Shown here piece by piece: positions 13,856 to 52,400 of a stretch of DNA of 64,000 bases. The notes beneath the pieces are model-generated. The model made no database searches. It was not told the origin of the DNA and saw only the letters and a list, made by a program, of their open reading frames with translations. Origin of the DNA: Callorhinchus milii (Eukaryota); the NCBI RefSeq assembly GCF_018977255.1, contig NW_024704745.1, positions 41,106,001 through 41,170,000 of the forward strand. The letters are read 5' to 3'. Numbering within the stretch: the stretch's first letter is position 1; each line of letters opens with the position of its first letter. The position numbers were made by a program, and so were the translations under genes.

Positions 13856-13859
13856 TCTG

Positions 13860-14063
13860 GTTGGTTGGTGCGCTGCGCTGCGCTGTGCGCTGTGCTGTGC
13901 GGTGACGCCCTCCCGCTGGAGCAGCTGAGCCCACACACAGCCTGGCGACAGGCAGACGCGAGGCCGAGCTGCGCTTGCGCGCGGGGTGGGGGGGCGTGTC
14001 CTGTCTATAAAGCCGGGCGCTGCTCTGCGCACGCGCGGCTTTGCGGACGGCGAGAGCGGTGTC
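13860..14063 (+). promoter_or_regulatory. SOD1 (copy 1) CpG-island promoter with TATA box
   Basis: TATAAA at 14006-14011, 58 nt before the ATG. A G-rich GC-box-like tract lies just upstream. CpG-rich through about 14330. Confidence 0.8.
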
Positions 14064-17000
14064 ATGGCGCTTCTGAGAGCCGTGTGCGTGATGAAGGGCA
14101 GCGGAGACGTGACCGGCAGTGTTAACTTCGAGCAGACCGTGAGTCGCAGGGGAGCAGGAGCTGACGGCGCCCTCCCTGCGTGTTGGGCAGCGCTTCGCTT
14201 CGCGGGCGGCGGCGGCGATTGTTTTTCTGTGTCAAGTCCATTCGGGGCGGACTTCGGCCCTCCGGATCCCGCCAGCGTTTCCCTACCGTTCCTCTCGGGC
14301 CGCCCCACTCGCCGCGCCTCCGCGGTCTGATGTGGCCTCTGCCCCCCCCCCCCCCCACCCCCTCTGCCCCCCCCCCACCCCCACCCCCTCTGCCCCCCCC
14401 CCCACCCCCTCTGCCCCCCCCCACCCCCTCTGCCCCCCCCACCCCCTCTGCCCCCCCCCACCCCCTCTGCCCCCCCCCCCACCCCCTCTGCCCCCCCCCA
14501 CCCCCTCTGCCCCCCCCCCACCCCCTCTGCCCCCCCCCCACCCCCACCCCCTCTGCCCCCATTTCTCTTTCCCTCCCTGAGCCGCAGAGGACGGGGCACA
14601 GGGGATCCGACCGGAGCTGCGATAGCAGCGCGACTGCAGAGAGCGGGGAGAGAGCCTCGGTCACACGGACAGGGGCGGCGACACCCCTCTCCATCTCTCT
14701 CTCTCTCTCTCTCTATTAACAGTATTAAACATTACCGTTTAAAAACAAACTCACCCCGCGGGCGTCCTCTCTCTACCCAATATTTTTTTTTTGCTTTGTC
14801 ATTGCTCCAGATGTCCAGCAGATAACATTGATCAGTTATTGGAAGGCACGCGCCTAAAATCAACTAACTACAGGTTATGTGAATTTAAAGTCGCCATCAA
14901 GCAGGTGATAATGCTTAAAAAGGCTCTCCACATCTCGCCTGGCTGACTGTATTAGTATATTTGCTTTGAGTTCCTCTCATTCTTGAGATTATCGTCTCAA
15001 AACGCAACACAGGTAATGGCTTTCCAAGGATGGCGATTATTTGTAAGCAAATATGCATCCAATTTGTGCGCAGTAAATCTCACAAACCACTGAAGTGAAT
15101 GGCCAGTTTATCTGCAGGAGCGTTTTCCAGGATAAAAGTAAATAGTAACCCTTGCATTTCATATATCACATCTTCGAGGCACCTCAAAGCGCTTCAAGGA
15201 ATATACTGTAAAGTGAATTGACTGAACATTTGTGGGTGAAACGCGGCAGCCGATTGCGCACAGCAGTGTCCCACAAACAGTTGTGGATTGAGTGAATTTT
15301 TTTTAAGGATTATTATCCCAGATACTTTCTGAGTAGTGCCATGTAACATCCACCTAAAGGGGAGATTGATCCTCTGTTTTAATGTTGTCCAAACACATGA
15401 CAATGGAGCACTTGCCCAATACCGCACCTAGACTGAGCTCAGTAATCTGAGCAATTATAGAGTAAATGCTGTCTTTGCGCTATATGTAGGAAGCAATAAA
15501 ATACATATAGCAGTATGTAGGAAGTAATAATTGCTGGATATCCCTGTCAATTATGAAAAAGTTGTTTTATAAAGTGCATTTGTGTAGCTTACTGACTACA
15601 ATGTAAATGTATTTCAAAATTGGCAGGTCAGAAAGGAAAGGAGATGGAGGATGTTTTGCTGGGACAGTGAGTTAGTGGTAAGGCCACTTGGTGGCACTGA
15701 ACAATTGATTTCATAAGAGAACAGAACATTTATAGTCCATAGAATATGAAGTTGTTCCAAACCAAATTTAGTAAGTACTATTAGGATTTGCAGTCTTATA
15801 AAGGTAAGAAATAAAAAATACTGGGAATGTGACATAATTGAAATTATAGCCTAGAAGGGCCCCTTTGAGCCACTCCTGGAGTTGTATATTTCAAGTACAA
15901 ATTTCTAACTGTGGTTGGAGACATCTGTGCTGAATTACATTCGGTACTAGATAATAACATCGACAACAACTTGCACTTATACAGCACCCTCCACAGATAA
16001 GATTATGATCAGTAACCATTTTAGGCACGAGTAGACCATTGGCATTCTAGAGTGTAATTTCTCACAAGGTTCCTTAATTTATCTATTAATGTTGAATTTT
16101 ATACACAGTAGAACAAAACCACCTGCATCCATATTTGCCAAATCACAATCTTAAATGCTTCTATTGAGTTCTCATTCAGTCTTCTGTGATCAAGTCCCAA
16201 GTAACCATCTTTGTGCCTATCACTGTGGTTAAATTTTGGAATTAATTTGGCATTTTTTTACTACTTATGTACATAATGGATTTTTATTGTTTGTCATACC
16301 TGTTTGGAAATCTGCAAATTTGAACATGGTTTGATGTGAATCCAGCCTCCAAATCAATACACAAAATGATAGTGCAGTCGATAACGATCACTGTAATACT
16401 TCACTGAAAAACTGGCGCCCAGCCAGATGACCATGAAAACTTTCTTCCCCTCTTTCCTCACCACTTTTCTTGGCAAAGTATAATTAAATATAATTTTCAA
16501 AGTATAATTGAAGAACTGCATGTTAGATATATTCACGTGGACCTTGTCAGGCTAGGAGACGTGAATAGTTTTTTTTAAACAACATGCATTTATATAATGT
16601 TCTTCAGTGTCTCAGAGCTTTTCCTTTGCTTCAGGCTGTTTCTCAGTCCCCTTATGGTCTGCCCCTTCCACATCTCTTGCACCTATTCCAGAATTTAATT
16701 CCATGTCCTGTTGCTTCACCTGAAGAGTTTGTAGACCTCTCTGATGGAAAATTTTCTTCTAGGGAAGTGGACCGGTCACAGTAAAAGGAACTATTAATGG
16801 ACTGACACCTGGAAAACATGGGTTCCATGTTCATGTCTTTGGAGACAATACTAACGGTATGGATTGTGTACTTACCACTTGGGCAATTCATTGCTTATAA
16901 TAATAATAATCCTTGCATTTGATATAGCGCTTTTCACGTCGGGAGGATGTCCCAAAGCGCTTCACAGAACACACTGTAAAGTGAATTGACTGTATGTGGG

Positions 17001-20000
17001 CGAACGCGGCAGCCAATTGCGCACAGCAATGTACCACAAACAGTTGTAGATTGAAAATGACCAATTTATTATTGTTTTTGGTTTTGGAGGGATTATTATT
17101 AGGCATGTGGAGCAAGGAAACTTGCCCAAGGTTTCGCCCTGCCTGGAATTGAACTCAGGTCTCTCGCTTGCAAAGCAAGTGCTCTAACCACTGAGCTACA
17201 GGACTCCGCTTACTGCTTGGGTGAATTTTTTAAACTGAATGCACAATTGCATGTTATTGAATCTGAGTAACTTGAATGGAAATAAGGGCACAGCTTCAGA
17301 ATTGTAAAATATATAGTTTGCACAGGGTTATCACAGTAGGAACAAGTTACCACAAAGAATGAGTGATTACCAGAAAATAGCTGATGCAATTGCTTGATGC
17401 TGTAAATCGGGAGATATTGGGATTGCTATATGGTGCCTTCAATACTGGTCCTGGTTGCTCCCTCTGCTCAGCAAGCACAAGTGTGCCCCACCATCAGTGG
17501 TCAGGCATTCAGTGTATCTGCCCCATTCTATAGAATCCCATACCTTTTGCTTGCCCCTTTCTTTGCTGCATTCAAGATCCACCTCAGGAACTTTCACTTT
17601 GACTGGGCTTTCGGCCAATTTCCCACCCCTGGATCATGTGCAAACCCTAGACTTTCCAGCACATTGGACCATCCTCCCAACGTGAGGAGTTAAATAAATG
17701 TAAATTTGAAATGTATTCACTCAATTTACTGTTGTAATTAAATTGGTTGGGCTATATAATTTAAAATCTGTTTACCAAGGCAAATTACATATAAAGCCAT
17801 CTATTTAATATTACTTGCTATTTGACATGATCGATGTGTATTCTCCTCACAAATGTGTTTTGTTTAAACTCTAGGCTGCGTCAGTGCAGGACCTCATTTT
17901 AATCCCCTGGGGAAAAACCATGGTGCACCACAAGATCTAGAGAGGTATGTTGTGCACAGATGGTAATGCAAGATCTTAAATATCTCACTGATGTAGTGGC
18001 CAAGTGTTTGTCCATCAGCAAAATATGATTATAATTTACCTTAGGCTTGTGATTTGTGAAAACTTTGAAAAGCTCCTACTAACTTTCTAATCCAGTGGCA
18101 CACTACAGTTTTCTTTGCCCTTTCATCAATGTGAATGAAGAGCATTGGGATTACACCATCTAAAATTGGTGGAAAGGGCTGGATAGAAAATGTCCTGTTC
18201 TTGTTTTCCTATGTTCCTGAAAAAGGCCAAACTCAATGATCAATTCAGTATTGCTACAGTTAGCTTTGTTTTCCAAGATGAGGCACACTTTTGTCTTCCT
18301 GTATGAGTTCACTTGGGTGCTTGCTGGTGTACTGTATTCACTCAAATTACTGTACTGAACACTCCCGTGTACTGAAGACCCTTTGGCTCACTTTACTGCA
18401 CTATAATAATAATCCTTGCATTTGATATAGCGCTTTTCACGTCATCTAGATGTCTCAAAGCGCTTCACAGAATATACTGTAAAGTGAATTGACTATATAT
18501 TTGTGGGCGAAACACTGTGGATAGTAAATGTTTCTGATGCCATTTTGTCGAGGAAATAACAGTGCTATTTTCTGTGTACAATACACAGGAAGTGCCATGA
18601 GCAGTGACGCGACAACTTGGAAGTCGGACGTTTTTGTTTTGCGTATAATGTAGTGTCTAGGATATTGGACTCGGCCAATATTAAATGTTTCTATGTGATA
18701 AATTGGTATTGGACAAGTAGTTGAATAGTGTCTCACTACTCTGCTGTCATGTTGAGTCCTTCAAACCAGTTTTTATGTTGGCTCAAATTGGGCTGTACGT
18801 TTCTATTGTAATGTATTTTGTATAAATGTTATCCCTCAATCTAAATTGAATCATTTTAAAATCTTAAGACATGTAGGTGACCTGGGCAATGTTGAAGCTA
18901 ATGCAGCTGGTGTGGCCAATATTGCCATTGAGGATAAAATTATCCAACTGTCAGGCAGCAATTCCATTATTGGACGCACTCTTGTGGTAAGTATTAAGAT
19001 GAAAGGTAGCAAACGTGTTTCTATTATTCAAGAAGGGATAAACTGTGTAATATTGACCAGTGAGTTTAACATCAATTCTGAGCAAATTACTGGAATCCTA
19101 TCATTTGGGACAGATTATCTGAAGAAATGGACAAATCAGAGGGACTCGGCAAGGTTTTGTGAAAGGTAGATAATGTCTCAAAGCCTAACGTGTGTTTTTG
19201 ACAACCATTATGGTAGTAAGTAAAGCAGAATCAGGAGGTAGCATTTGATGAGCTATTTTACTAAGGCAACATTGTAACATGAAATTCACACGGATGCAGA
19301 GTGGGTCAGAGGAAGAAATAATTGAAGGACAATGAAAGTGATGCCGTTCAGATTGGTGCTGGGGCCCCAGATTGCCATGCTACCTGAAAAGGGGTTACTT
19401 CCAGGTTTGCTGCTGATCAAGATTGGAAGTTAAAAAGAAAATTAGAACATTAAGTAAGAGAACAAGTTTATGGGAGATGGGAGTTTAACATTACAAAATG
19501 TTCACTTTGGATGCAAGAACAGCAGATTGGAATATGTTCTAAATGGAAAAGAACTAAGATATGGAACCCTTAAAACTGTTAAAGGGTTCAATTACTAGAC
19601 TGTCAGTTTAACCTAGGAGCACAAGTTTGGACATTGATCTTGACCCAAATGACAAGTTTGGAGGGGCAGAAAGCGACCAAGAAAGCTAATGGAATGTTGA
19701 GCTTTATGGCGATGGATTTGGAATCTCAAAGGAAGGAAACGTTGCTTCTGTTCAGTGCATTGGTTGGACATTTGAAATATTGTATCCAGTTTTGGGTAGT
19801 CAGTCTTACTAAGGCTACACTTGTAATGTATTCATCAATGATTTACTAGATTAATACCTATGATTAAGTGGTTTTGGCGTGATGAGAAGCTGAATAAAGT
19901 TAGGTTGAAAGTCCCAAGGGCCTTTCATCCAAATCCCATTTGTGATATTTAATCCTTGTCAGACAGCTGCTAATGTATTGTAGTCATGAAATATTATATC

Positions 20001-20959
20001 AGGCTAGGTATTCAATGTAGTTCCTCTCTTCTAACAAGTGGAAATAAATGCACAGAATAAAGAGACAAGCTTATCTCTGCATCCAAAGAATAAAGATAGT
20101 GCCCCATTAAAATTAAAGCTTGAACATTCCATTTGAAAATACCTGGCCATTCCTTTGCAAATGCCCCATGTGAAATCGGCTCAATTTGGTTACTAATGAG
20201 TGCAGATCTACATTAGTTCATTCTGATGTTGCGTGTTAACTGATCTCAGAACTATAGCTCCAGGAACTAGACCAGGGAAATTTGATTAAAGTTCATGATG
20301 AATCAATCCTACGGTGGTACTGGAATAGGCACATTGACCTCTGCTTACATTTGTATACATTACTGGAACCTATTTTGAAACTACATTTGGCTACAACCTT
20401 TCCCATGTTTGAAAGAAATATAAAAGTAAGGTTTTGACTATGTACTTTGAGCCTTGATTGCAATTTTTAAAATTATGAAAATTTGAAACACAACAACTAG
20501 CATTCAAAAAAACATGTTTTGGCCATTTTCTTATTACACTTCAGAGCTTATTTTCCAGTTCCCCAATTTTGTGGTTGAACTCAACTGAATAAGTAGTGCC
20601 ATTTTTTTTCTCAACAGCCATCCTTAACGCTTCAGACTCAGTTTATATTGAAATTAAACTTTTGGTTGTTGGCTCACCATATTTGGCCCAAATTATTATT
20701 TGATGCCCTTTAATCTAAGAATTATTGAATCAGTTTTGAATCTAGGATGATTTTTTTGTAAAAAATATTATAGCAATAGTTGTAACAGCCAAGATTGTGT
20801 GTTAAGGTACAGATACTAATTTTTTTAATTTTGCTTCTGAAGGTTCATGAGAAGGATGATGACCTGGGAAAAGGTGGACACAGTGACAGTCTTACAACTG
20901 GAAATGCTGGAGGACGTTTAGCTTGTGGAGTGATTGGAATTGCCTCTGCAGAAAAGTGA
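14064..20959 (+). CDS. SOD1: Superoxide dismutase [Cu-Zn], canonical SOD1 (copy 1), 5 exons, 157 aa
   Basis: Exons 14064-14138, 16763-16856, 17875-17944, 18869-18986, 20843-20959, all GT-AG, phases 0,1,2,0. Protein [158 protein letters not shown]46, H48, H63, H71, H80, D83, H120, C57, C146 and R143 equivalents are all present. Confidence 0.97.
14335..14560. repeat. C-rich tandem repeat (CCCCCTCTGCCCCCCCCCA-like units) in SOD1 intron 1
   Basis: Repeated ctctg plus C-run units of about 19-20 nt. Confidence 0.9.
16897..17207 (-). mobile_element. tRNA-derived SINE, full length, in SOD1 intron 2
   Basis: Reverse complement of the 50045-50370 element. Confidence 0.92.
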
Positions 20960-24136: not shown

Positions 24137-24481
24137 CTTTGTCCTGTCGCTGTCTCAAAGCGCTTCACAGGATATATTGTAAAATGAATCCACTGTATAT
24201 TTTGTATAATTGAGAACGTGTTAGATTTCATTGCTCTAGTTTTGTGTATACGTTAAGTAAAACCATATTAAGATGAAAACAACTGCAAATGCTGTCAATC
24301 CCAGCCCTCCCTGCACTGTCCCTTCCCAAACCAGCTCTTTCACGTGGGTGGTGTAGGAGTTCACGTGTAGGTGTTCGCTGATGCGTAAACGTTGGAAACA
24401 GTGACAGTTGTGGTCTGTGATCCCTTCCACAGCCACAGAGAGAGAGAGAGAGAGAGGTCTGCAGTGGGAGACTGGGAAACC

Positions 24482-27400
24482 ATGGCCAGGGCTATCTGTA
24501 TACTTTTTGGTATCCGTAATGCCTTTGGAGTCGTTCACTTCAAATCAGATGTGAGTAACAGTAAAACCAGACTTTAAACTAGACTTGGGCAGTTTGAGTT
24601 TAAATAACATTCTTCAATGATCCGCTCAACAGAACCCCTTCAGTGTTAACCAAAGGGTTTGTTTTGTACTCCCAAGTTGTGTCGTTACTGTTCTCAGTGG
24701 TGGTTAGTGAGACCCTTCATTGCATACGGTCGGAATAACTAACTACGCGTTATCTCTGTGAGCTGTGGTGCAACACCGACTACTGAGAAAAACTGCGATT
24801 GAGTTGTGGGAACACTGGCAGTAAAATGACCAGGACTCGTGTACACTGAGGAAGAGGGACCTTTCATTGGCATTGCTGTACTACATCCTCAAGATGCGTT
24901 GGTGTCACTTGTTGTCACCCTTTAGACCTCGAGGCTTGTGAGTTTATATGAAGCTGATCAATGAGAATTTTTTTTAAAAAAGGGAATATATATTCAAATA
25001 GAGACAAATCGTGTCCAGAGGAAAAAATATGTAAAAACCAGAATTCCCACACCGAGAGTTGTTATTTCTGCAATTAAAAAACTCCCATAAAAGGGAGTGG
25101 AACCAGAAAAGGGGGTGACTGGGTTGCCAACTGTCAATAAAGTTAAGTTGCTTTTTGAAGGAAGCCGTTTTTGATGTGTCAGTACAATCAACAACAAAAA
25201 AAACCATAAGGGAATAAAAAAAATTCTTCTCCCTTGAATCCCCAGTCCTAAAATATTCAAATTAATTGGCTACTTATTGATGTTTATGGGATACTGCTGG
25301 CACAGATTAACTGCTTATTTTGTCAATGTAACAACATCCACTTGATGTTCTAATCAATTATAATTAATTATTATTATTTCTGATGTGGGGAGGGTGGTCA
25401 TCTGAAAGGTTTTCTTAGAAAATCCTCAATTTTTAAAATTGTGATCACATTTAAACTGGAAACCGAGAAATACAGACACACAAAATGCCAGAGGGAAAGC
25501 AGATGAGAAAAAAGTGAGAAAACAAGAGATCAGTTTACACTTATATAGCCATAAAAGAAATATGTCAAAATGCTTTACACCATATAGATGTTAACAATAA
25601 TAATAATCCTTGCATTTGATATAGCGCTTTTCACGTCGGGAGGACGTCCCAAAGTGCTTCACAGAACACACTGTAAAGTGAATTGACTGTATATTTGTGG
25701 GCGAATGCGGCAGCCAATTGCGCACAGCAATGTCCCACAAACAGTCGTAGATTGAAAATGACCAATTTATTATTGTTTTTGATTTTGGAGGGATTATTAT
25801 TAGGTGTGTGGAGTAAGGAAACTTGCCCAAGGTTTCGCCCTCTGCCTGGAATTGAACTCAGGTCTCTCACTTGCAAAGCGAGTGCTCTAACCACTGAGCT
25901 ACAGGACTCCACAAACCTGTTGCTATTCCTTAATGTCCGGTTGGAATTACAGAGGTTCACACTCTGCAGTGTTGCTCACTTTGGTTGGATCCTGGCAGTA
26001 TGGCCACAGCATTGTCCTTGCACAAACTTGATGTCCTCAAGTCAGCTTTTCACTGTGGGAGTAGAGGAAACTGACTTAAGTCATTGTCATTGAAATGCCG
26101 AAATGCTCCAAATAGCTTTAAATAGTAATCCATTTTTAAAGCGTCACTAATTGAATAAAATGAGCAGAGTTAGTAAAGATTTTTACATGGAATTTTGATT
26201 TTGTAGATGAATGGACACATGACAGTAAAAGGAGAGTTTACTGGGCTGCCTCCTGGAAAGCATACACTTAATATTCACAGCTTTGGTGACATCACTGATG
26301 GTATGAAATTTATATCTTGTGGTTACGCAATGGGTTTGATGTTCTTTCTATGCTTGCGTGTCAATGCTTTAGCTGTAACCTACCAAATGTTTTGCAGAAA
26401 TTACAAATAACCTCCAAAGATGGCCAAAAGTATGGTCAAAGAGGCAGGTCTTGAGACAGAGCTTGGAGGAGGTGCAGGAATGGGATGAGGCGAAGGGAGT
26501 TCTAGCGAGTGGGGCAGAGATGGGAAGCAATTGGTGGAAAGAGAACATCTTGGACTAGTAGTTGAATTTGTCTTGAGGAGAAAGGAAGGGCCATGAATTT
26601 AACCTTTGACTTAAAACAAAGCCAACTTTGAAGGGATGAGCATGGAACAAGCTAAAGTAAAATGGGAGCATTTGATAGTTACAACTAACACACAGTGGAA
26701 TCTATTCAAAAAGGTAATTGTAATTTTGTTGTCGTTGTTGTAGCACATTATATAAATAGGAATGCACCCATGAAAGCAAAGATCGTGCTTCCAAGTCCCG
26801 TTGTATGTAAATGGTGAAGTGTTAGATGGTTTTTCGAGTGATATTGTGAAGTGGATTTCTGTTATGTTCAGAGATTTACATTGGCTGCACATGCTAACAA
26901 GTCAGAAAAACAGCTAAGTATTGAGGATTTAGAAAATACCACAGCAACAAGATATTACTCAGCTAAACAGCTTGTTTCCCCTATCAAAGGAGTCAAGAAG
27001 ATAACAGCAAGTTACGGGCAGACATTATGTTTGGGGAGCTGCACATGCTCAAAAGATTTTTTAAAAAATCATAGATGTCTTCTGTAAAGCAGGTATTTTG
27101 TTTAAACGGCCAAATTACTGAGACCTTTACTCCACTGGTACTGAATCATTAACATTAAGTGTGACCTGGATTGAAAATAATGCATACTTTTAAAAATTGT
27201 ACAGCACAACATTTCTGCAAATTGCTGGTGGTAGAATATGAAGCCCTCTTGGTGGAAAAAATTAATAGGTTTGTAGGGATTCTCCAATGGATCCTCTAGT
27301 CCAACCCTAGAGAATACATGTTGGGGATTGAGTAGACATCCATACCAGGCGAGGCACAATCAACTAATGGAAAATCTCATGATAACTAGACCTCCTTTGA

Positions 27401-30022
27401 GGCTGCTGGGGCATTCACCCTACTTTTCTTTTGTTTAATCAAAATATATATATTTATTTGTTGCTATATATTTACGCTTGTCCCAGATATTATCAAACCT
27501 GTTACAAAAAAGAAGACGCAACATGTTATTATCCTGTTACAGAATGCAACAGACCCGGCCCCTTGTGACGGAGGGCTTGCCTCTGCGCACTCCACTTTGG
27601 TGAAGGGACCAAGGCTTCCCTGCAGTTGCAAATGAGGTCTTGTAACCCTTCCCTATCCCTCCCCTTTTAGTGGGGAGTGTGGACAGATTCACAGCACACA
27701 GGTTGTGCACACATTTTTTTCGGACGCACCCTTAAAGACAGTCATGAATTGCCCGTGTGCACTGCCCGCACACCCTGATAAGACGCACTTACTGCTTTCG
27801 GATGGCGTCCCGATGTGCACAGTACACAACATGTTTACCCAAACACACGTCTGGAAACCTCACAAACCCATACACGAGTCCCACCCATCATCTTCTGGGG
27901 TTCTGTTCCCTTTTTCTACAGGGAGCAGTTACATGGTTGGGCTAGTCCAGGCTTTGCCATCATTTTACCGGACGGTGAGCCTTTACCTCACTCCCAGTCA
28001 CTCCCCCTTTTATGGGGGGAGGCAGACATACTACATTTATGGGACGCTCATTTGTTTACATCTCGAGCGTCCCTCTATACATTTACATGGTCCCAGATGT
28101 TTATTCACAGTTTTGGGTGCCCTTGTGAATGCACCCTGATGTCTCCTTCTCACTGGTAGGGACCCCGGCGTGGGGGATGTGATGCCACTGTGGGGGCAGC
28201 TAGCACAGGAGTGGCCCTGGCTGGGGTCAAGCATGTCCCTCAGTATGTAGTCCTTGATCCTAGTGTGCGTGAGCCTGAGGCAGGCCCTCTCCGTCCCTCG
28301 TTCTGCCTGAAGACCACCAGGTTTCGGGAGTGCCAAAGTGCCTCCTTTACAGAGTTGATAATCCTCCAGGCACACTTGCTGTGGATTTTGCTGGTGCCCA
28401 GGAAGAGGCTGAGGGCAGCGCTGACTGGCCCAGACCTCAACTATGCATGAAAGCCATGAGGGGAAGGCCCTTTTTATCACCAACCAACCTGATGGTTGTT
28501 GGTCAGGGCCGGTGACGAGGCATTCTGCCACATGTCACCACAGTCACCACAGGATAACTCCTGATCGGGTTGGCCCTCTCCCCCTTACTGTTTCAACTAC
28601 TTGCCGCGTGGATCACTCGGTGATTGCGTGGGGGTCTGGAATGGTGTTCTTCATAAATTTCTCTACACATGATAGGTGTTTTGCCACACTCCAACTGCGA
28701 GGAACGTTTTGAGGCAGTCCTGCCAGACACGCCCTTCTCAGCACCAGGTACAGGTAGAAGCCCAGCACATAGTGGCATTTGTTGCTGGCGTAGAGGGGCT
28801 CTAGGCACAGCCTCAGGCAGCCACACACAAAGGTGGCCATGAGGATCAGGGCTACGTTAGGGACATCTTCCCCCCTGTGCTCCTTGCTAGTACTGTTTAA
28901 TTTTTTCTACTGTTCCTGGTCCTTTTAACTTCTTTAGGGTGAAAGATGTCAGTACTGATAGCTGCCATTAACTGCCAGCAAATATATTTTTTTGTGTATC
29001 CTCTGTGAAGTCAGTCTGGAGATAGCAAATAACTCTCTGCCACCCAGCATGGATTCTTTTTTGTTGATCTGTTTTTAAGTAATGTAATCTAGTGTTCTGG
29101 ACTTCTCAAAAAAAAAAGTTAATGTTATTTGTTTAAGGTTGGGTCAGTGCAGGATCTCATTTCAACCCCAATAAAAAAACAGTTTTGCTACAAGGTGTAC
29201 TACAAGAAAGCAACATGTGAGTATTGGATTTTAATGTGCTTTCGATCTCGCTGCTTCACCCGTCCTTCACCCTCCCTGAACCCCAGTTCAGGTCCGTAAC
29301 TCTTGTCCAGTTCTTTGGGACATCCTCCCAACGTGAAAGGCGCTATTCAAATGTAATTTTGTTATTGTTGTAATGTTAATAAAAAGAATAAAAAGTCCTT
29401 GAATATTTTTTAACAATGATTCCAGACACAAAACATTTTTTATTCTCTGTAGCCCTCAAGGTGACCTTGGGAACATTGATGTTAATGAAGATGGTTTGGC
29501 CAAGTTTGAATTTAATGCTTGCAATTTCAGCCTGTCAGGAATTAATTCTGTTATTGGACGCTCTCTGGTGGTAAGAATCATTACTTCAGGATATGTGTAC
29601 CCCCACTTTTGTGTGCTCTTCTGAGCAAACTTTTCTGGGCATTGGAAAATGTTCTCTAATATACAAAAATAAACATCTAAAATACATTTTAATTGAGATG
29701 CATTTAAAACTGCAAATAGTGGTTACTGTTTCCTCTATATTCTTCTTCTCATTTTTGTAAAACTTTCATTTAACAGTTTTTGAAGTTAATTTATTCATCA
29801 CTTGGTAGCCAGGTCCTGTTAATCTTTATCATATAATTTTAAATAATTCCATACCAATAGCAGAACTGGGTAATGGCATGTCTTTCCTTTTTAAAGATTC
29901 ACAAGATTGAAGATGACCCAGCTAAAGCCTCAAATGAGAAGTACAAAACTGGAAATTTCAGCACAAGTTTAGCTTGGGGAGTGATTGGAATTTGTCAGAA
30001 CAATATTTCACAGGAAGACTAA
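24482..30022 (+). CDS. SOD1-like paralog (copy 2), highly diverged, 5 exons, 161 aa, predicted catalytically inactive
   Basis: Exons 24482-24550, 26207-26300, 29138-29216 (79 nt, +9 in frame), 29453-29570, 29897-30022, all GT-AG, no stops. Protein MARAICILFGIRNAFGVVHFKSDMNGHMTVKGEFTGLPPGKHTLNIHSFGDITDGWVSAGSHFNPNKKTVLLQGVLQESNIPQGDLGNIDVNEDGLAKFEFNACNFSLSGINSVIGRSLVIHKIEDDPAKASNEKYKTGNFSTSLAWGVIGICQNNISQED. AATAAA at 30295-30300. Confidence 0.9.
25595..25910 (-). mobile_element. tRNA-derived SINE, full length, in intron 1 of copy 2
   Basis: Same family as 50045-50370. Confidence 0.92.
27430..28850 (-). mobile_element. L1/Tx1-like LINE 3' fragment in intron 2 of copy 2
   Basis: Minus-strand fragments CAWRIINSVKEALWHSRNLVVF and CHYVLGFYL..VEKFMKNT resemble a Tx1-type ORF2 C-terminus (recalled similarity, not searched). 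Confidence 0.6.
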
Positions 30023-31280: not shown

Positions 31281-31674
31281 ATGGTGGTGAAGGCGGTTTG
31301 TGTGCTGAAGGACGAAAGCCATTTCCAACGCCAGTTCCCTCCCGGCGCTGGAGACACAACTCCCGGTGTTGCTGGAGTCGTCCANNNNNNNNNNNNNNNN
31401 NNNNNNNNNNNNNNNNNNNNNNNNNNNNNNNNNNNNNNNNNNNNNNNNNNNNNNNNNNNNNNNNNNNNNNNNNNNNNNNNNNNNNNNNNNNNNNNNNNNN
31501 NNNNNNNNNNNNNNNNNNNNNNNNNNNNNNNNNNNNNNNNNCTGAGTGTTTAGTTGGGATGGATGTGCTGTGTGAGCGTCACTCCCCCCCCACTCCCCCC
31601 CCCCCCACTAACTGACTCCAGATTTAAACCGCCGGGGGTTCTGCTGTGTGTCAGCGGTCACGGTGACCCCTCTC

Positions 31675-31705
<31 letters not shown>

Positions 31706-34700
31706 GGGGTTTGCAAACCTGCAATTAAATGGCTCAATTTTTAACTCCGGTCTCCGTGGGGCGGGGAGGGGGTTTCTCTCGAAAAATAAATCCTTTTTTT
31801 TTGAATGACTCCATTTTAACGACGGCTCTGTCGCATTATTCGAATAACCGTTTTTTTTTTTGGGGGGGGGGGTGGGGGGGGGGTCGACAGAGCAGAACCC
31901 ACACCGCTTCTTCTGGCTAAGATTTCTCCTTATTGAGCAGGAATTACCAGAACATGTTCAGGTTTGTTCCCACACAACTCCCCGGTCCCTTCTCCTCACT
32001 GGAAACCATTGACCACTCCCCACTGACTCTGACAAACCTCCCTTTTTTTGCCCCTCTCTCCCCCTTCACACACACACACACAGGTCCACATAAACTATCC
32101 AGTTGTTGCCCATCGCCATGTTCTGCTTTCCTCTCCCAGGTGCTGAAGCATGTCTGCCTGTCAATTCACTCTTTCCTCTCCCAACGCTCCCAGTGTGAAT
32201 TCCTTCAGTCAAGCTTCCACCCACCCACAGCACTGAGAGGTTTGGTCAAAATGGCATCCTCCCTGTCCGTAAGCGGTAGTCAGAGCGCTCCTCGCTCTTT
32301 CTGCTGCCTTTGACACTCATCCTCCATATAAAGATAAAAGTTCACCCCTAACCTTGATGTTTGCCGACCTGTGTCTAAGACTCACGAGTCAGACATCCAA
32401 TTTGACCAAAACAAATGTCCACCAATGTTTCTAGCACATTCGCTGCTTGGCAACTTATAACATGATTGAAATCTAAATTTAACGCATTATTATCACTCCA
32501 TTCTTAGCTCTTGGGAATGTCGTCCGCAGACATGGGGTACACACCCAACTCTTATTTTTCCACCTCACTTTGTGACCCCCCAGTCCCCTGATGTTCTGTC
32601 AGTCTGCCTGTCAGACCTCAGGGGTTGGATAAGCGTGAATTTCCTTCAGCTGAACGTTGACAAGACGGAAGCCATACTCTTTGGCTCTCGTCAATGTCTT
32701 AAATCACATGGTTCTCACCTCCTCCACCTATCCGACCTCCCACTAAAACTCTCTGAATCCGTACTCAACCTAGGGGTCAGGTTCGACCCCCAATTGTCCT
32801 TCCTCCCCCCCCATCTGGTCCCTCAACAGCACCGCTTTCTTCCACCTCCGATGCATCGCCCGTCTCCGCCAATACCTCACCCCAAAAGCCGCCGAAATCC
32901 TGGTCCATGCCTTTGTCACCTCTCGGCTGGACTATTCAAATGCCCTCCTCGCCGGTCTCCCCTCCACTACCATTCATAAAATCCAGGTCATAATAATAAT
33001 AATAATAATCCTTGCATTTGATATAGCGCTTTTCACGTCGGGAGGACGTCCCAAAGCGCTTCACAGAACACACTGTAAAGTGAATTGACTGTATATTTGT
33101 GGGCGAACGCGGCAGCCAATTGCGCACAGCAATGTCCCACAAACAGTCGTAGATTGAAAATGACCAATTTTATTATTGTTTTTTTTTTGTTTTTTTGGAG
33201 GGATTATTATTAGGCGTGTGGAGTAAGGAAACTTGCCCAAGGTTTCGCCCTGCCTGGAATTGAACTCAGGTCTCTCGCTTGCAAAGCGAGTGCTCTAACC
33301 ATTGAGCTACAGGACTCATACAAAACTCTGCCGCCTGCATTCTTACCCACACCAAACTCCGCTCCCCGATTACCCCAGTCCTTGCCAGACTGCACTGGCT
33401 GCCTGTCCCAGAGAGGATCGATTTTAAGATCCTCACTCTTGCCTTCAAATCCCTCCACTCCTCTGCACGGCCCTACCTCTCTGATCTCCTCTCCCCACAC
33501 AGCAGTGCATGTTGCCTTCGCTCCACCAGGTCTGACCTCCTCTTTGTCCCCCGAATCCTCCACTCCACCATCGGCGGCCGGGTCTTCAGCCACTACGCCC
33601 TGAGACTCTGGAACTCCGTTCCTCACTCCCTTCGCCTCACCCCCTTTCTCCCTACTTTCAAGTCTCGGCTGAAGACCTTTCTTTTCAACCGCGCTTTTGG
33701 TCACCTTCTTCCCCCTCCCCCTGGCTCGGCCCCAGGATCCGTTACTGTGAAGCTCTCTGAGACGCCGTCCGGCGTGGAGGGCGCTATATGAATCCAAGTT
33801 GTTGTTTTGACTAGTTTTCTAAATGAAAATTAAATATGTTCATGGAGAATTAACTTTATAATGTATGGTGCTAACTCAAAAGAACACCATATCTAACCAC
33901 TTCTACGAGGCCACTTCTGTATGAAACTATTATCTTGCAGGAAAATGAGCCAGTGTTAATAAAAGGAAACATTTCTGGATTAGCTCCTGGAAAGCATGGG
34001 CTTCATGTTTGCACCTTTGGAAACCTTTTAAATGGTATGTAATATACACCTGTTTCATAAAAATATTCCATTACTATCTTACTGTCAATTTCAGTTCATT
34101 CCTGATTTTTCAATTTCCTAAGACAAATTGGTTTAGTTAGCATTGCATTTAGAGTAATAAGATATGCAAAAAAGTTTCATTTTCTCCTTTGAGTGCTCCA
34201 CATTTTAAGTTCTCTGATAAATGCAGGATGTCATCACATTTCCATCGCCTTGGGATGTGCTGCCGACGTGAAAAGCTCTATACCCATGTGATTTTGTACT
34301 GTATTGTAACAGTTTAAGATGGGAATTTTTCAGTGGGAAAAGCAGCAGGCAGCTCTTGTAGTGTTTTTTTTAACCAGGATGACTATGGTAAGTAATTTGA
34401 CATTTTAAATTTAGCTTACCTCAAAATAGACTCCAAGTCATATTCACTCCCAAGGCAGTAAATGGTCTAATTCCACCTGGAGCACTGTCTGCAATCCCTG
34501 TCATTGTATTAGAGTAAAAGATATCTTAATATTAGAGGAAATACACTGAGAAGCAAGTAGATTAATAGCTGTGTGTGGGCATAAATTATTGGGAGAATCT
34601 AGATAGAAGCGAAGACTCAGGGAGATCTTATTGAAATATTCAAGATCCAAAAGGCCATTTTTTAAAAAATCTTTGTGGCCAGCCAGATAATAATAATAAT

Positions 34701-37360
34701 CCTTGCATTTGATATAGCACTTTTCACATCTTCTAGATATCTCAAAGCATTTCACAGAATAAACTGTAAAGTCAATTGACTGTATATTTGTGGATGAAAC
34801 ATGCACAGCAGTGTCCCACAAACAGTCGTGGATTGAAGTGACCAATTTTATTATTTTTTTTCTTGAGGGTTTATTATCAGTCATGTGGAGTAAGGAAACT
34901 TGCCCAAAGTTTTGCTTGTGAGGCGAGTGCTCTAACCACTGAGCTACAGGTCTTCCACAGATACAAAAGATAGTCTTTTCCTACACATTATTTATGTAAT
35001 TTTGGTAAACAAAAGAATGGCTAGCCCTTTGTGTTGGACAAACCAGATGCTTAATGTCTTATTTCTCTTCGGAAACTTCTTTGTTGTTTTCCTGAATGCA
35101 AAGGAAATATTTCATAATATAATTGTTTCCAGGTCACTTCAGTTTAGGATCACATTTCAATCCATATGAGAAAAAACACGGAGGACCAGAAGATGAAGAA
35201 AGGTGAGTTTTGGATGTATAGATGGTCCAAGTAGGAACCATCATAAAAATAACAACAACAAACAACAACAACTTGGATTTATATGGCGGCCTTCACTCGG
35301 GGCATCATGGGGTAATGTCTTGGAGTGCTTAATAGTTGTGGAGTTTGACGGTAGGCCAGTTTGAGAAGGGGGTAACTATAGGCACGATGGAAGAGGAAAG
35401 TCTTTAGGTGTCATCTGGAGATGGATAAAGAGGGAGCAAGTGAAGGGATTGAGAAAAAAATAACCTTTTTGTTAATTAAAGTTGTGACCCAACATTAGAA
35501 ATATAGTCAATCAATTGCCAGTTCTTGCCAGGCTCCACTGGCTTACAACCACTGAATGGTTTGATTTCAAGATCCTCACAAATGTCTTCAAATCCTTTCA
35601 TGCCCTGACACCTTCCTACCTCGCCTACCTGCTTATTCCCCAATCTGTTGCCTTGGCTAGAATGCCTCTGTCCTCCTGCTTGCCCTACTATTGTACGGCT
35701 CTGAGATGCTACCCTGCATGAGGGGCACTATATAAATGCAAGTTATTGTTGAATTATGTCGACCATTTTTTAGTCTGCCAGGCTTTTACGCCTTGACAAG
35801 CGAGACATCTGGGTTCAATTCCAGGCAGGGCTAAACCTTGGGCAAGTTTCCTTACACCACACGCCTAATAATAATCCCTCCAAAACAAAAAAAATAATAA
35901 ATTGGTCATTTTCAATCCACGACTGTTTGTGGGACACTGCTGTGTGCAATTGGCTGCCACCTTTCGCCCACAAATATACAGTTAATTCACTTTATAGCAT
36001 ATTCTGTGAAGTGTTTTGAGACATCTAGAAGATGTGAAAAGCGCGATATAAAATGCAAGGATTATTATTATTATATTTTATAGAACCCCAGAGCCAAAAT
36101 ATTTTGGAATTTAAAGTGTTACAAAATGTTACTTCCTGATGTAATGATATATTTCTATAAATTTAGACATTTGGGTGCCAGTTAGACAGAAATTGGATAT
36201 TTTAATATTTAGTTCACTCCCACTGGTACTGATATCTGGTTAAACCTCAGTAGCAGGTCTTATTGGTGTCCTGCAGCTCAGTGGTTAGAGCATTCGCCCC
36301 GCAAGTGAGAGGACCTCGGTTCGACTCCCAGGCAGGGCAAAAAGTTGCGCAAGTTTTGTTACTCCACACACCTCTGTTTACCTTGCAGTACGTAGGTATC
36401 CGATCGTTTGTCAATTGCGGATCAATTTTCTGGGGGTAATATTCATTTAAAAAAAGAATAATAATTTGTCAGTCAATATACGACCTTTTGTGGGACACTG
36501 TTGTGCGCAATTGGGTCCCGGGTTTCACCCATAAAATATACAGTCAATTCACTTTACAGTATATTCTGTGAAGTGCTTTGAGATGGCTCGAAGACATGAT
36601 AAGGCAATATATCAAATACAATTATTATTATTATATATTTGCTACAATTTTACTATGTAATAAAACATTCAACAAGTAAACTTTGGTGTCTTATTATTTT
36701 TAATCTGCTGTAGGCACGTAGGAGACCTGGGAAATGTGATAGCTAACAAAGAAGGTGTGGCAGAGTTTCAAATACAAGATCGACTTCTCCAACTTTCCGG
36801 AGTTTTGTCCATTATTGGACGTTCTCTGGTGGTAGGTACTAAAAGTCTGCCATTTGCTCAGTAACAACAATGGTAGCGTATTGTACTTTCAACTGCAGGA
36901 TACTGCAGTTCAAATTGTGTGGAACTGCGTAGATTCTAGAAATTGCTGGGGTACTGAGGGGTTGTCTAATGCCCCTGTGATCAGTATTGAGATTTGTTCC
37001 TCCTGGCTGTTCTTTTAAACATTATTTAAAACATCTTTTAAATAATGGAAATACAAATTATTAATATAATAAATAATTGTAAATAATGTCAAATACAAAT
37101 TTGACCTACTAGAATAATTCTGTTTTAATTTTAATTAACTATATTAATATATGTGCTTGTGTAAAGATAGAAGACTATCAAGTAAATGATGAATACAAAT
37201 GTCTAGATCACTGACACTGTTTTACTTTGTAAAGATTGAGGAAAAAGAAGATGACTTGGGAAAAGCTGGAAATGAAGAAAGCCTTCTAACAGGGAATTCT
37301 GGAAAAGGTTTAGCCTGTGGAGTGATTGGTATAGCTGATGTTGTTATGAATTTAACTTGA
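31281..37360 (+). CDS. SOD1-like paralog (copy 3), 5 exons, exon 1 truncated by an assembly gap
   Basis: Exon 1 31281->31384 ([34 protein letters not shown]..., donor presumably in the N gap). Exons 33941-34034, 35133-35202, 36714-36831, 37235-37360 encode [141 protein letters not shown] at 37663 and 37680. Confidence 0.88.
31385..31541. other. Assembly gap (157 N)
   Basis: Run of N. Confidence 1.
32505..33806 (+). mobile_element. L2 3' portion in intron 1 of copy 3
   Basis: [33 protein letters not shown] and an L2 tail. Confidence 0.88.
32990..33317 (-). mobile_element. tRNA-derived SINE nested in an L2
   Basis: Same family. The L2 sequence ATCCAGGTCATA|CAAAACTCTG resumes on both sides. 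Confidence 0.92.
34687..34950 (-). mobile_element. tRNA-derived SINE, internally deleted
   Basis: Head, core and tail are all recognisable. Confidence 0.85.
35775..36633 (+). mobile_element. Two tRNA-derived SINE copies (about 35775-36075 and 36267-36633)
   Basis: Same head, core and tail motifs. Confidence 0.85.
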
Positions 37361-41060: not shown

Positions 41061-44000
41061 ATGATAGCCACCGGGAAGTGTGTCCTCCACCAGAGCTCCG
41101 ACAGCACCGGTGTGAGCGGCGTATCGGGAACCGTGATTTTCGAGTGGGACGTAAGTAACAGTACCGGCGGCGTTGCCGGTAAACACACGGCCGCACCTCA
41201 CTCACTCACAATGTCGTCGCTCTCGAAATTACCGCCTAAACTCAAGAGCCGCGGTTGGAAGCGCACGGCGGTGGGTGTTGACGCCGCGCGAGCGCTTCCA
41301 TTGACGCACGAGAAATAAACCCGAGCAGCGACCCGCCGCGGCCACGGTAACGACTGGCCGTTGTGAAGCTGTGGCTGCCATCAGGGGGAGCCGTCGATGG
41401 CAGTTTGTTTTAACACCAAAGAGAGACTGTGTTTGTGCCTCGAAGGACCTGCGGGTGTGTGTCCGAGTGAGAGTTACGGCTGTACGTCATCCCGCATCCC
41501 GAGCAGCCGTACACCGCCCTCCCGCACCTCCTCATAACCGTCATGGCCGCCGCGACCTCCCCCACTGCGGGAGGCCAGGACACGGCCCCATGTTGTGGCA
41601 GGGACCAAAGATTGCGGGGCGTAATTGTGGAGGATCAGTTTGGTCACTCACTCCGTGACTGTTTGTGGGGCACTGCTGTGCGCAATTGGCTGCCACGTCC
41701 AGCCCACAATATACACAGTCACTCCACTGTACAGTATGTTCTGTGAAGCGCTTTGAGACGTGATGAGACGTTGTATCAAATGCAAGGACTATTATTATCA
41801 GTTGGGCCAAAGGGGCCATCTTCACTCAAACTGATTTTGTGGTCAGCCTGCACAAGAACAACAACAACAACAGCATTTACATAGCGCCCTCCATGCCAGG
41901 CGGCGTCCCAGAGCGCTAAACAATGATGGAGCCCGATGCCGAGCCAGCGGGAGGGGGAGAGGGAAGGTGACCACAGGCAAGGGCAAAGACGGAGGTCTTC
42001 AGGCGCAAACTGAAAATGGGGAAAGAGGGGGCAAGGCGAAGGGATTGAGGGAGGGAGTTCCATAGCTTCGGGCTGTAGTGACTTGTAGTGTCTGAAGGCA
42101 TGGTGGAGCGGAGGATTCGAGGGACAAGGAGGAGGCCGGAGCTAGTAGAGCGGAGGCAACGGGTAGGGCTGTGAGGATAGAGGAGGTTGGAGAGATAGGG
42201 GTGCCAAGGCGTGAAGGGATTTAAACACTAGAGTGAGGATCTTGAACTCAATCCACTCTGTGACAAGGAGCCAATGGAGGTCACAAGAGAAATTGACATG
42301 AATAAGGAAGGTAGGTCACTGTAGCCCATCTGATCTCATTCTTCCAGAACATCCACTTGAATGTCAACAACAACTTACATTTATTATAGCACCCTTCACG
42401 TGGGATAGTATCTTGGAGCCCTTAACAGTGGTGGAGCTTAACTCCGGCCTTGCATCAACAGCATTCAGCTTTTTTAAAAAAACAAGTTCAGTCTCCTGGC
42501 CTCAACCTGTTCCTGGCCGATACTCCTCCAGATAAAATTGCTTGTTTCCTTTCATGGCTGTTTGTGGGACATTGTTGTGTAAAGATTGGTTGCTGTGTTC
42601 GCCTACAAATACATTGCCTACACTTTACAGTAAAATCCTGTGAATTGTTTTGAGGTGTTTTGACGCTGTATTAAGGCACTAATATCAAATGGAAGAATGA
42701 TTTTTATTAATCTCTGGGTAAATAATAATTCCTGTCATTTGCCATTTGCAACATTGAACCTGTGTCTTCTTGTGTCCTCGGTTTAACATCTCACCTGAAA
42801 GACATCACCTCCAACAATGTAGCCGCCCGCAGCTCGTATCGACAGTCCTATTTCACGTAGACATCATTTTCTGTAAAATAACAAAACATAAACTATTTAT
42901 TTGTTCACCTTCCCTTTTCTGTACTCGAGTCCGTATCCCTTTGGTTTAGATTTTTTTGACCATGTTACATGACAAGTTATAAAGGTTTGATTTAACTCTT
43001 TTTTACCAAACTTTTTAGGAAACTGAAGAAGTGTTAATAAAAGGAACCATTAGCGGCTTGTCTCCTGGAAAGCATGGCCTTCATGTTTGCTCCTTTGGAA
43101 ACATTACTGATGGTATACTTCAATCTTGTGTTTCCAAATAACAGATCTTGTTTGATAATCAACAACTATAATTACAGTATATGAATCTTACCTAAAATAT
43201 GAACTAATCTGAATTTTTAGTTATAGTTAAATGAATTACTGGATTTGATTGGATTTTTCAAAGTAATCTTTGTTAACATGCAAGAAATTATGAACTGTTA
43301 AGCAGATAACCCAGGGGTCTCAAATGGCTTTAATGTCGATAAATATAATGTCATGCATATCAGAACAGGCGATGCATATCTCCTGTAGCTTTGAAGTCCT
43401 GTAGCTTATTGGTTAGAGCACTCGCCTCGCAAGCGAGAGGACCTGGATTTGATTCCCAGTCAGGACGAAACATTGGGCAAGTTTCCTTATTCCACACGCC
43501 TCTGTTTCATCTAGCAGTAAGTAGGAACCCGGTTGTTAGTTGAATGGCAGATGGATTTTCTGGGGGTAATAATTCCTGACTTAAAAAAAAAATTTGGTAA
43601 CTCAATCCACGACTGTTTGTGGGACACTGCTGGGTGCGATTTGCTTTTGCCACAAAAGACCTTCCTTTTCGACCGTGTCTCCGGTCATTTCTGCTCGACG
43701 TCAGGCTCCGCCACTGTCAAGCACTCTAGGATCCTACCTTGGGTGAGGGGTGCTATATAAATGCAAGTTGTTGTGAAAGCATGGTGTGTCAGATGCCTGA
43801 CTAACCCCCCAAAAAGTGTATGGATTTTTTTTGAAGCATCATGATTGCTCCCTTCAATGTCTGAAATGTGGTACTGCAGCCTATTGGACCATGGGTGGTT
43901 GCTTGGAACAAAATGAGATACAGTAATTGGCTCATCAAGCCCACTCCTTGTTCAGATCATGCATGAATGTTATTATAATCTACAACCCACTCACTATTAT

Positions 44001-51600: not shown

Positions 51601-52400
51601 CGCCTCAGCCCGTGTGTGAAGTCACGAGGGCCGGTCTCCCGCCCCGCAAGAGTTGACACTGCGCGTGCGCGCGCCTTTACACGGCTCTGCGCGGTCGGTG
51701 GCTGTCGCCTCGTCGGGCGGTTCGCGGTCGTGAAATTGGGGAATTATGACGACTACGAAGGCCGTGTGTTTGCTGAGGGGTCACTCCTCCGTGGTCGGGA
51801 CGTGTACTTTCAAAGCAATTGTGAGTCAGGCCACGACTGTTAACAGTCATAGTAATGCCCGGGGCTGGGCGGGGGCTTCGTGTCCATAACGGAGATGGAC
51901 GCGGAGGGCAGACACGTGGCCCTTCGTTTGTTTCACTTGAAGCGCATGTGTTTGTAGCGCAAGAGCCGCCATCTTCCTAACTCCCGGTGTGTGTGTGTGT
52001 GTGGGGTGTGGGTGTGGTTCTCCTGCACGTTCCAGCTTCTTGCACGGAATCTCCCCAACTTGCCTTTTTTAAAAAAAAAGTCGGATTTTTTTTTCAGCGA
52101 AAACGTTTTGCATTGAACGCGCGGTTACACGGCGTATTGATGAGCTGCGGCCGACACCGCCAGGTCGGGTTTTAACTGACCTCAATGGTACAGTGTGTGG
52201 TGTGGTGTGTGTGTGTGTGTGTTGAACGTTGTGCACTGTTGTTCACTGCTCGAGCTCCTGTGTCGGGAGGAGCCGCCGCTTCAGAGGCCGTTATAACCGT
52301 TGATGTGAACCCGCGCGCCCGCGGCCTGGTTTTAACGGCCACCGTGGCGGGGGTTGGAGCCCGCGCCGCTCGGGCCAACCCGGTCTTTATATCACCACCG
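51590..52400 (+). promoter_or_regulatory. CpG island around exon 1 of paralog copy 5
   Basis: CpG-dense, with GC boxes (CCCGCC), an NRF1-like GCGCGTGCGC at 51661 and several YAACKG motifs in intron 1. Confidence 0.65.

Follow-up and report, generated by a model that had tools for sequence, protein, structure and literature searches.

Relatives of cytosolic SOD1

Human SOD1 without its disulfide is prone to aggregate and is studied as such in ALS, a subject that part of PMC6383938 also touches on. The disulfide is kept in every eukaryotic Cu/Zn SOD derivative covered in the relevant part of a 2026 review, namely CCS domain II, Cu-only SODs and CSRP (PMC13017621). The passages of this review on the individual derivatives describe CCS domain II as having the SOD1 fold with three of the four Cu histidines, CCS as docking on SOD1, and Cu-only SODs as having lost the zinc site and the electrostatic loop (PMC13017621). 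Binding and release of CCS are governed by the GDXT tetrad and the reduced 57-146 state, according to the passage of PMC6383938 that deals with this step. Leporipoxvirus pseudo-SODs, which target host CCS, are inert SOD1 homologues acting as decoys (PMC7605207).

The 64,000-nucleotide window, which is the whole stretch of DNA analysed, contains five SOD1 copies in tandem, and the second of these, copy 2, was compared with the systems above. Like vertebrate cytosolic SOD1 (PF00080), copy 2 has the five exons and the phases seen in copy 1, the barrel glycines, the dimer face, His48, His63, His120 and Asp83; unlike SOD1, it has no His46, His71, His80, Arg143 or disulfide, and its loops IV and VII are rewritten. 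The fold and the three of four Cu histidines are shared with CCS domain II, but CCS differs in retaining the zinc site and the disulfide and in possessing domains I and III, whereas copy 2 consists of one domain and sits within the SOD1 tandem cluster. The poxviral proteins resemble copy 2 in that it is likewise predicted to be inert, and differ in being viral and in their target. Cu-only SODs share with it the loss of the zinc site and electrostatic loop; they differ in being active, extracellular enzymes with Cu site and disulfide in place, whereas in copy 2 His46 and the disulfide are missing and the frame begins directly at strand 1. No description of a SOD1 of this type was found in the literature searched for one.

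The other members of the cluster are:

14064..20959, forward strand: copy 1, canonical SOD1 with all ligands, Cys57/Cys146 and Arg143
31281..37360, forward strand: copy 3, SOD1 paralogue with H48C, H120E, C57H and R143G, zinc ligands retained
41061..48788, forward strand: copy 4, SOD1 paralogue with H48C, H120T, C57Y, R143G and C146W, zinc ligands retained
51746..60882, forward strand: copy 5, SOD1 paralogue with all metal ligands, R143G and C146W, sister to the Trp57/Trp146 clade

All four have 99-100% matches in protein databases. Position 143 is Gly or Ser in copies 2-5 and in all shark orthologues. The cluster runs from an intact copy, through loss of Arg143 and loss of Cu with Zn kept, to loss of both Zn and Cu, a gradation that lets one ask what roles SOD1 has beyond catalysis.

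Gene structure and metal ligands of copy 2

Copy 2 comprises five exons, which splice to 161 codons with 0 stops; its introns are GT-AG at all exon ends, with the phases of the four neighbouring copies:

24482..24550, forward strand: exon 1, from ATG to donor, matching the N-terminus of the shark orthologue
26207..26300, forward strand: exon 2 (Pfam Sod_Cu, E 1.8e-5), with His43 (26261), Thr44, Asn46 (26270-26272, Cu ligand lost), His48 (26276-26278, retained) and the tetrad Gly51-Asp52-x-Thr54 retained
29138..29216, forward strand: exon 3, with Trp57 (29140-29142), His63 (29158-29160, retained), His71 gone and a rewritten zinc loop (net +9 nt) with CTACAAG at 29188 and 29200
29453..29570, forward strand: exon 4 (Pfam Sod_Cu, E 1e-6), with Pro80 (29454-29456, Zn ligand lost) and with Asp83 and Gly114-Arg115 retained
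29897..30022, forward strand: exon 5, with His120 retained (29900-29902), a degenerate electrostatic loop (-1 aa), Ser143 (29966-29968), Trp146 (29975-29977), an intact strand 8 and the stop TAA
30295..30300, forward strand: candidate polyadenylation signal AATAAA, a match to the consensus alone

The Sod_Cu domain and five-exon structure place copy 2 in the SOD1 gene lineage, and an NCBIfam search gave nothing beyond the Pfam result. Exon 4 numbering was anchored by a gap-free match to human SOD1 chains (residues 82-118). The substitutions H46N, H80P, C57W and C146W, reported in an earlier note on this DNA, hold at codon level (N46 AAT, W57 TGG, P80 CCT, S143 AGT, W146 TGG). Two further substitutions reported there need rewording: His71 is gone, but its replacement by Val hinges on where the gaps are put (the MAFFT alignment has H71Q), and Ser143 is present, but relative to its own orthologues the change is Gly to Ser and not Arg to Ser. 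The rewritten zinc loop with three additional residues is borne out by an exon 3 of 79 nt where the other four copies have 70 nt, the electrostatic loop is shorter by one residue as claimed, and the motifs GDLGN, IGRSLV and GVIGI are retained; both indels are in frame. The CTACAAG pair that had been noticed lies at the insertion site of exon 3, and as a 7-mer pair unlisted by the repeat finder it is weak by itself.

Three of the four Cu ligands are retained (His48, His63, His120) and position 46 is Asn, with the Cu strand altered by G44T and H46N. Among the Zn ligands, His71 and His80 are lost, and His63 and Asp83 are retained, as is Asp124. The description of both metal sites as dismantled was therefore right about His46, His71 and His80, but overstated in view of the remaining His48, His63, His120, Asp83 and Asp124. 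Copy 2 lacks the full Cu and Zn ligand sets, Arg143 and the Cys57-Cys146 disulfide of an active Cu/Zn SOD1. It does not qualify as CCS, being a 161-aa single domain without domains I and III, zinc site or disulfide, or as a Cu-only SOD or CSRP, its Cu site being incomplete and the disulfide absent. Copy 2 is almost certainly without dismutase activity.

Orthology with sharks and age of the tryptophan pair

SOD1-like proteins of 12 shark species share Trp57/Trp146 and Gly143, and copy 2 has both tryptophans. The best full-length relatives of copy 2 are shark proteins (65, 59, 58 and 52% identity, with 40-45% to the four neighbours), and in a set of 1.84 billion representatives the top two single-domain matches of exon 4 are shark Trp57 proteins. 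In the tree, copy 2 and 10 shark proteins form one clade (support 100/99); 13 of 28 diagnostic residues are shared with the shark clade by copy 2 and 7 of 28 by copy 5. Orthology of copy 5 to the shark Trp/Trp proteins, in the form of a grouping of these with copy 5 that leaves out copy 2, was rejected (p-AU 0.0071). It is virtually certain that copy 2 is the orthologue of the shark paralogue and that the Trp pair is ancient.

W57, G143 and W146 are present in 10/10 aligned shark proteins and all seven metal ligands in 9/10; copy 2 has the clade membership, Trp57, Trp146 and absence of Arg143 that mark the shark paralogue, but not its metal ligands. Because 9/10 aligned shark orthologues retain all seven ligands, the Trp pair predates metal loss, and on this sequence comparison the loss of ligands is the later event and belongs to the chimaera lineage of copy 2. 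The interval separating the two is some 400 million years. The earlier note had treated the Trp pair as part of the metal-loss event and as peculiar to copy 2, and both views have to be abandoned: it is an older trait of the paralogue, common to shark orthologues that keep their metal ligands, and Trp146 also occurs in copies 4 and 5.

The shark models, annotated as 'superoxide dismutase [Cu-Zn]-like' (e.g. XP_067896643.1, XP_020366739.1), share with copy 2 Trp57, Trp146, the lack of Arg143 and diagnostic residues, and are grouped as its orthologues; unlike copy 2, they retain the metal ligands (9/10) and evolve slowly. The search for conserved orthologues that the note had proposed thus succeeded, and the pseudogenised orthologues that it had raised as a counter-argument are not seen in 9/10 aligned shark proteins, although catshark models look decayed. 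This decay appears to be independent, with H63Y in both catshark species and, in one model, His71 replaced by Pro and exon 2 read in a different frame.

The shark SOD1-like database models are automatic annotations, and no paper was found in the literature searched for shark Trp/Trp SOD1-like proteins. PMC11083954 deals with a catshark sperm SOD, scyTo_0006156, which is not the Trp/Trp gene scyTo_0011685. For Heptranchias, the records of the paralogue and of SOD1 show a longest contig of equal size, a hint only of shared position. No second intact Trp/Trp gene was found elsewhere in the chimaera genome among 24 matches or 2 DNA matches.

A shark orthologue (P0032) is predicted to form a SOD1 barrel (pLDDT 89; TM 0.88-0.97 to solved SOD1) when folded with a deep alignment of mostly Cys/Cys proteins, and folding from the 10 Trp/Trp proteins by themselves reached pLDDT 46.5. 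The indole rings of Trp57 and Trp146 may occupy the room vacated by the disulfide and by the side chain of Arg143, which would shut the substrate channel. A SOD1 paralogue of vertebrates, disulfide-free since before the shark-chimaera split, offers a natural, testable way to stabilise the barrel.

Pattern of change in copy 2

The 51 positions invariant across sharks and 77 canonical SOD1s, with 20 in the zinc and electrostatic loops and 31 elsewhere, were used as reference sites. Copy 2 changed 9/20 of the loop sites versus 2/31 elsewhere (p=0.0018), both of the latter at the Cu strand; excluding indel-adjacent sites, it changed 6/17 loop sites (p=0.017). Copies 1, 3, 4 and 5 changed 0-1 of the same 20 loop sites. 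The barrel, tryptophans and dimer face were spared, interface positions 50-52, 54, 113-115, 148, 150 and 151 being those of the shark and canonical majority. Between copies 1 and 2, dN is 0.63 and dS 0.62 in the loops, and dN is 0.31 and dS 0.47 elsewhere. This distribution of changed and spared sites supports the suggestion of a catalytically inert SOD barrel under constraint.

An exon 5 relic on contig C9, diverged at 11/52 UTR bases, already has Ser141; since the relic, copy 2 changed four loop residues, and across residues 144-153 it changed 0/10 and the relic two. On the question of whether the relic is a retrocopy, both alignments score 18. The fold of copy 2 has very probably been constrained for long after metal loss, and the chances that it is still a working protein today are put at slightly better than even.

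Database absence and variants

The copy 2 locus appears absent from protein databases: no protein was found among the 120 of 1251 matches listed or in further searches, and exon-sized word searches of a 5.8-billion set, which are weak searches, returned no match. Among contigs of runs X1, X7, X9 and X2 over 24300-30500, unspliced pieces occur in X1 only; that X1 is RNA is a guess, and its pieces may be pre-mRNA or DNA. No splice joint appeared among the 15 of 372 joint rows listed, in a table swamped by repeats. Other-sample contigs contain two coding differences, both non-synonymous and affecting invariant positions. One contig of run X2 (depth 6.8) has H43Y through C>T at 26261, and one contig of run X1 (depth 4.4) has G82V through G>T at 29461, which may be an error. 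The 400 bp around the ATG has the lowest CpG of the five copies (o/e 0.47).

Proposed function and alternative explanations

The evolution of copy 2 involved tandem duplication of SOD1 with loss of Arg143, as shown by the Gly or Ser at position 143, followed by fixation of Trp146 and Trp57 before the chimaera-shark split, as shown by the tree. The shark lineage was then strongly conserved with its metal ligands, and the chimaera lineage freed the zinc and electrostatic loops while keeping frame, barrel and interface, as the site pattern shows. With no way to make the 57-146 bond or to take copper via Cys57, copy 2 would remain in a permanent 'immature-SOD1-like' state, and may bind copy 1, the paralogues, or CCS if present, via the face formed by Gly51-Asp52-x-Thr54, Gly114, Arg115, Gly150 and Ile151. 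Like CCS domain II and the poxviral pseudo-SODs, it could in this way tune how its partners mature or how stable they are.

Because key metal-binding residues are lost, copy 2 is likely a non-catalytic partner protein, if still expressed; given a working protein, a partner-binding role is moderately favoured. The preferred reading, a metal-poor, catalytically dead SOD1 barrel likely dimerising with SOD1-fold partners, is predicted at even chances. No CCS-like exon was detected in the genome among 19, 10 and 30 matches, in an exon-wise search that can miss CCS, and the C2 match showed no SOD-like frame where translated; CCS as a partner is thereby weakened. Tentatively, and with the odds against it as a whole, this would be an undescribed cartilaginous-fish SOD1 pseudoenzyme in which Trp57-Trp146 replaces the disulfide and plugs the Arg143 channel, a stable protein retained for some 400 million years, with the chimaera copy as an end point still alive today and fully independent of metal, which would regulate or chaperone SOD1 and might replace the undetected CCS.

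The main rival explanation shares this history but has copy 2 lately silenced or unselected, a young pseudogene whose frame is unbroken. Only 2/31 non-loop invariant sites have changed, and the ATG, eight splice ends and polyadenylation hexamer are intact, which argues against it, but in a neutral-drift simulation (starting from copy 1, with an assumed indel rate) 30% of the runs still had an intact frame at d=0.02, and survival is likely up to that distance. The lack of a database protein, unlike the four neighbours, also fits a recent lapse, although tissue-restricted genes are often missed by annotation; so do H43Y and G82V, each of which comes from a single low-depth contig, the weakest CpG island of the five and the apparent independent decay in catsharks. 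A recent lapse is considered a real but unlikely possibility. An ancient death, with the substitutions as random decay, is extremely improbable in spite of the long branch (0.60) and lost catalytic residues. Part of that branch length is lineage-wide, because the copy 1 branch is also long (0.35). The altered positions concentrate in the metal loops (p=0.0018), Trp57/Trp146 is inherited and not decay, and frame and splice sites survived in 5/2000 neutral runs at d=0.10 and 0/2000 at 0.12, so that at most 5/2000 stay intact at d of 0.10 or more. The simulation, the C9 relic and the site pattern refute it, within the simulation's assumptions.

If copy 2 is instead a residual metal sink, His48, His63 and His120 would still bind a single Cu or Zn ion in a site that is open, like that of Cu-only SODs, and the protein would buffer metal instead of working through partners. 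The sparing of these histidines, Asp83 and Asp124 while adjoining loop sites changed, and the ligands retained by shark orthologues, are consistent with this, but the Cu strand itself is changed by G44T and H46N, and the passages of PMC13017621 on these proteins give Cu-only SODs an intact four-His site and disulfide and have CCS domain II, with three His, bind no Cu, making a sink improbable. Compared with the partner protein favoured here, a shorter splice form would differ in its loop: joining the donor at 29195 to the acceptor at 29461, one of three in-frame pairs close to the junction of exons 3 and 4, yields an open frame of 151 codons with most of the zinc loop deleted. Its extra donor falls at the duplicated CTACAAG, but the sequence GTGTAC fits the consensus more poorly than the GTGAGT at 29217, which is the splice place of the four neighbours, and its use is highly improbable; such a form would alter the loop, and the enzyme would still be judged dead.

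Structure of the SOD1-type genes

The window holds a tandem array of five SOD1-type genes, all in the same orientation on the + strand. Copies 1, 3, 4 and 5 match database proteins labelled Callorhinchus milii at 99-100%, and copy 1 is the canonical SOD1. The gene under study is copy 2:

24482-30022, + strand, copy 2: exons of 69, 94, 79, 118 and 126 nt with GT-AG ends; 161 codons with no stop among them

Every substitution listed for copy 2 in the earlier note (H46N, H71V, H80P, R143S, C57W and C146W) was present in the spliced sequence, and His48, His63, His120, Asp83 and Asp124 were retained. Human SOD1 numbering is used throughout, with His46 of copy 1 as the anchor and PDB chains as a check on exon 4; the loops were taken to span 62-83 and 121-142. 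A long GC-rich tandem repeat lies immediately upstream of copy 1 exon 1 (about 11700-13770), with a GC content of 0.75 in 12001-14000. A proline-rich open frame on the minus strand of genome stretch L022 (about 6200-7040) resembles the end of SCAF4, the usual SOD1 neighbour; a family search with this frame gave no match.

Ancient origin of the tryptophan pair

A profile search with five exon-5 sequences returned 1251 proteins, and among the best 120 listed the closest relatives of copy 2 were four shark proteins (65, 59, 58 and 52% identity), whose clusters led to further shark species. An independent exon 4 search of 1.84 billion representatives gave 29 matches, the two best single-domain ones being the same kind of shark protein. 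Across both searches, SOD1-like proteins with Trp57 and Trp146 were found in at least 12 shark species, with no ray orthologue among the matches listed. Ten aligned shark proteins, 71-87% identical to that of Heterodontus, all carry Trp57, Gly143 and Trp146, and nine carry all seven metal ligands; in a motif scan of 169 proteins, Trp at 57 or 146 was confined to sharks and the chimaera.

In a 36-row tree, in which copies 2, 4 and 5 were flagged as long rows, the ten shark proteins grouped with copy 2 (support 100/99), and copy 5 was sister to that group (98/86). Canonical SOD1 was separated from the set made up of copies 2-5 and the shark proteins (97/91). Because copy 2 groups with the sharks, and the alternative placing copy 5 there instead was rejected (p-AU 0.0071), Trp57 and Trp146 are older than the divergence of chimaeras and sharks roughly 400 million years ago. 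Among the members of this ancient Trp/Trp paralogue found here, copy 2 has diverged furthest.

The tryptophans arose while metals could, in principle, still be bound. An aromatic residue occurs at 57 or 146 only where Arg143 is already gone (copies 2-5), which would fit a ring occupying the Arg143 pocket; when SOD1 is bound to CCS, it is Arg143 that sits between positions 57 and 146 (PMC6383938). In copy 5 (51746-60882), all seven ligands and Cys57 are retained, yet residue 143 is Gly and residue 146 is Trp, so that it resembles an intermediate on the way to the Trp/Trp form.

Later, loop-targeted loss of metal sites

The canonical set comprised 77 of 136 proteins (148-160 aa, with the His motif; Arg143 and Cys146 present by construction). 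Of 51 positions that do not vary across this set and the shark proteins, copy 2 differs at 11: within the zinc and electrostatic loops at 9 of 20, versus 2 of 31 elsewhere (G44T and H46N; p=0.0018), or 6 of 17 in the loops with indel-adjacent sites left out (p=0.017). The other four copies have 0-1 changes at the same 20 loop sites. Noisy estimates against copy 1 gave dN 0.63 and dS 0.62 in the loops (43 codons), and dN 0.31 and dS 0.47 outside them (80 codons). Metal loss in copy 2 is later than the tryptophans, and targeted. The reading in the earlier note is supported in part: an inert SOD barrel is likely, but the Trp pair joined there to metal loss is the older of the two.

Constraint or decay

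Neutral drift was simulated from copy 1 (2000 runs per divergence d, indel rate assumed). Frame, ATG and splice ends survived in 30% of runs at d=0.02, 5.5% at 0.05 and 0.25% at 0.10, and in zero of 2000 at 0.12, the level changing 22% of residues. A relic of copy 2 was found on contig C9 of the C. milii genome:

G000:C9:19617962-19618113 (L020 1463-1614): exon 5 relic and UTR start, 152 bp, isolated between repeats, 80% identical to copy 2

Ser141, Lys136 and the stop of copy 2 are already found in the relic, which still has Gly127 and Gly143 and preserves the electrostatic loop at an earlier stage; 11 of 52 UTR bases differ from copy 2. Since their split, four loop residues changed in copy 2, and residues 144-153 changed twice in the relic and not in copy 2, all small numbers. 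Long-dead decay of copy 2 as a pseudogene is unlikely because of the site pattern, the simulated drift and this relic, and a barrel freed from metal chemistry has probably survived long.

A recent lapse of the gene is the main alternative, if the less likely one, and several observations point that way. No database protein for copy 2 was among the matches listed, and its four neighbours have entries. The only two coding differences listed, H43Y (window 26261, run X2) and G82V (window 29461, run X1, depth 4.4), each in a single contig of another sample, are both at invariant sites. Around its start, CpG enrichment is lower than in any of the other four copies, and catshark orthologues also look decayed, possibly independently. 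Those of Scyliorhinus (P0053, P0148, P0166 and P0167) carry H63Y, and the S. canicula models additionally have His71 replaced by Pro and exon 2 in a different frame.

Fold and possible role

Folded with 95 rows, mostly canonical SOD1, the Heterodontus orthologue reached pLDDT 89.3 and pTM 0.86, superposing on solved SOD1s with TM 0.88-0.97 and rmsd of about 1 Å; with only 10 Trp/Trp rows, pLDDT was 46.5. The dimer-interface residues of copy 2 are intact, including the GDXT tetrad, which governs SOD1-CCS pairing (PMC6383938); in copies 3 and 4 the dimer face carries D52N. Copy 2 would have no dismutase activity and little metal, and may act through dimerisation with copy 1 or its paralogues, as a brake or folding partner. 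CCS is less probable in that role, since Sod_Cu, HMA and SOD1 queries of the genome detected nothing resembling a CCS exon; such queries can overlook CCS, which may be absent, unassembled or missed.

Relation to known systems

Copy 2 belongs to the SOD1 lineage. Its nearest known systems are SOD1, CCS domain II, leporipoxvirus pseudo-SODs (PMC7605207) and Cu-only SODs/CSRP, but it falls outside the active members of each as these are defined. The accessible text of PMC13017621 lists no disulfide-free SOD derivative and states that the three histidines of CCS domain II do not form a Cu site; that of PMC10416458 covers one chimaera SOD1 only, and that of PMC11083954 deals with a different gene. 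No description of the Trp/Trp paralogue was found in the literature accessible, and subscription journals or supplements could mention it.

Other SOD genes in the genome

Copies 3 (31281-37360) and 4 (41061-48788), both with database entries, have H48C, have lost His120 and Arg143, but keep the whole zinc site, and their exon 1 is longer, suggesting a second, CCS-domain-II-like route to inactivity. About eight tandem intronless genes (G000:C1:43550632-43630086; L001-L007, L011), some with lost ligands (e.g. L007), are labelled SOD3-like, a label inferred from their signal-peptide-like starts. Expansion has thus affected both Cu/Zn SOD families of the C. milii genome, which also encodes a multi-domain SOD-repeat protein (G000:C7:4388313-4389638; L008, L015, L016), probably CSRP/SOD4.
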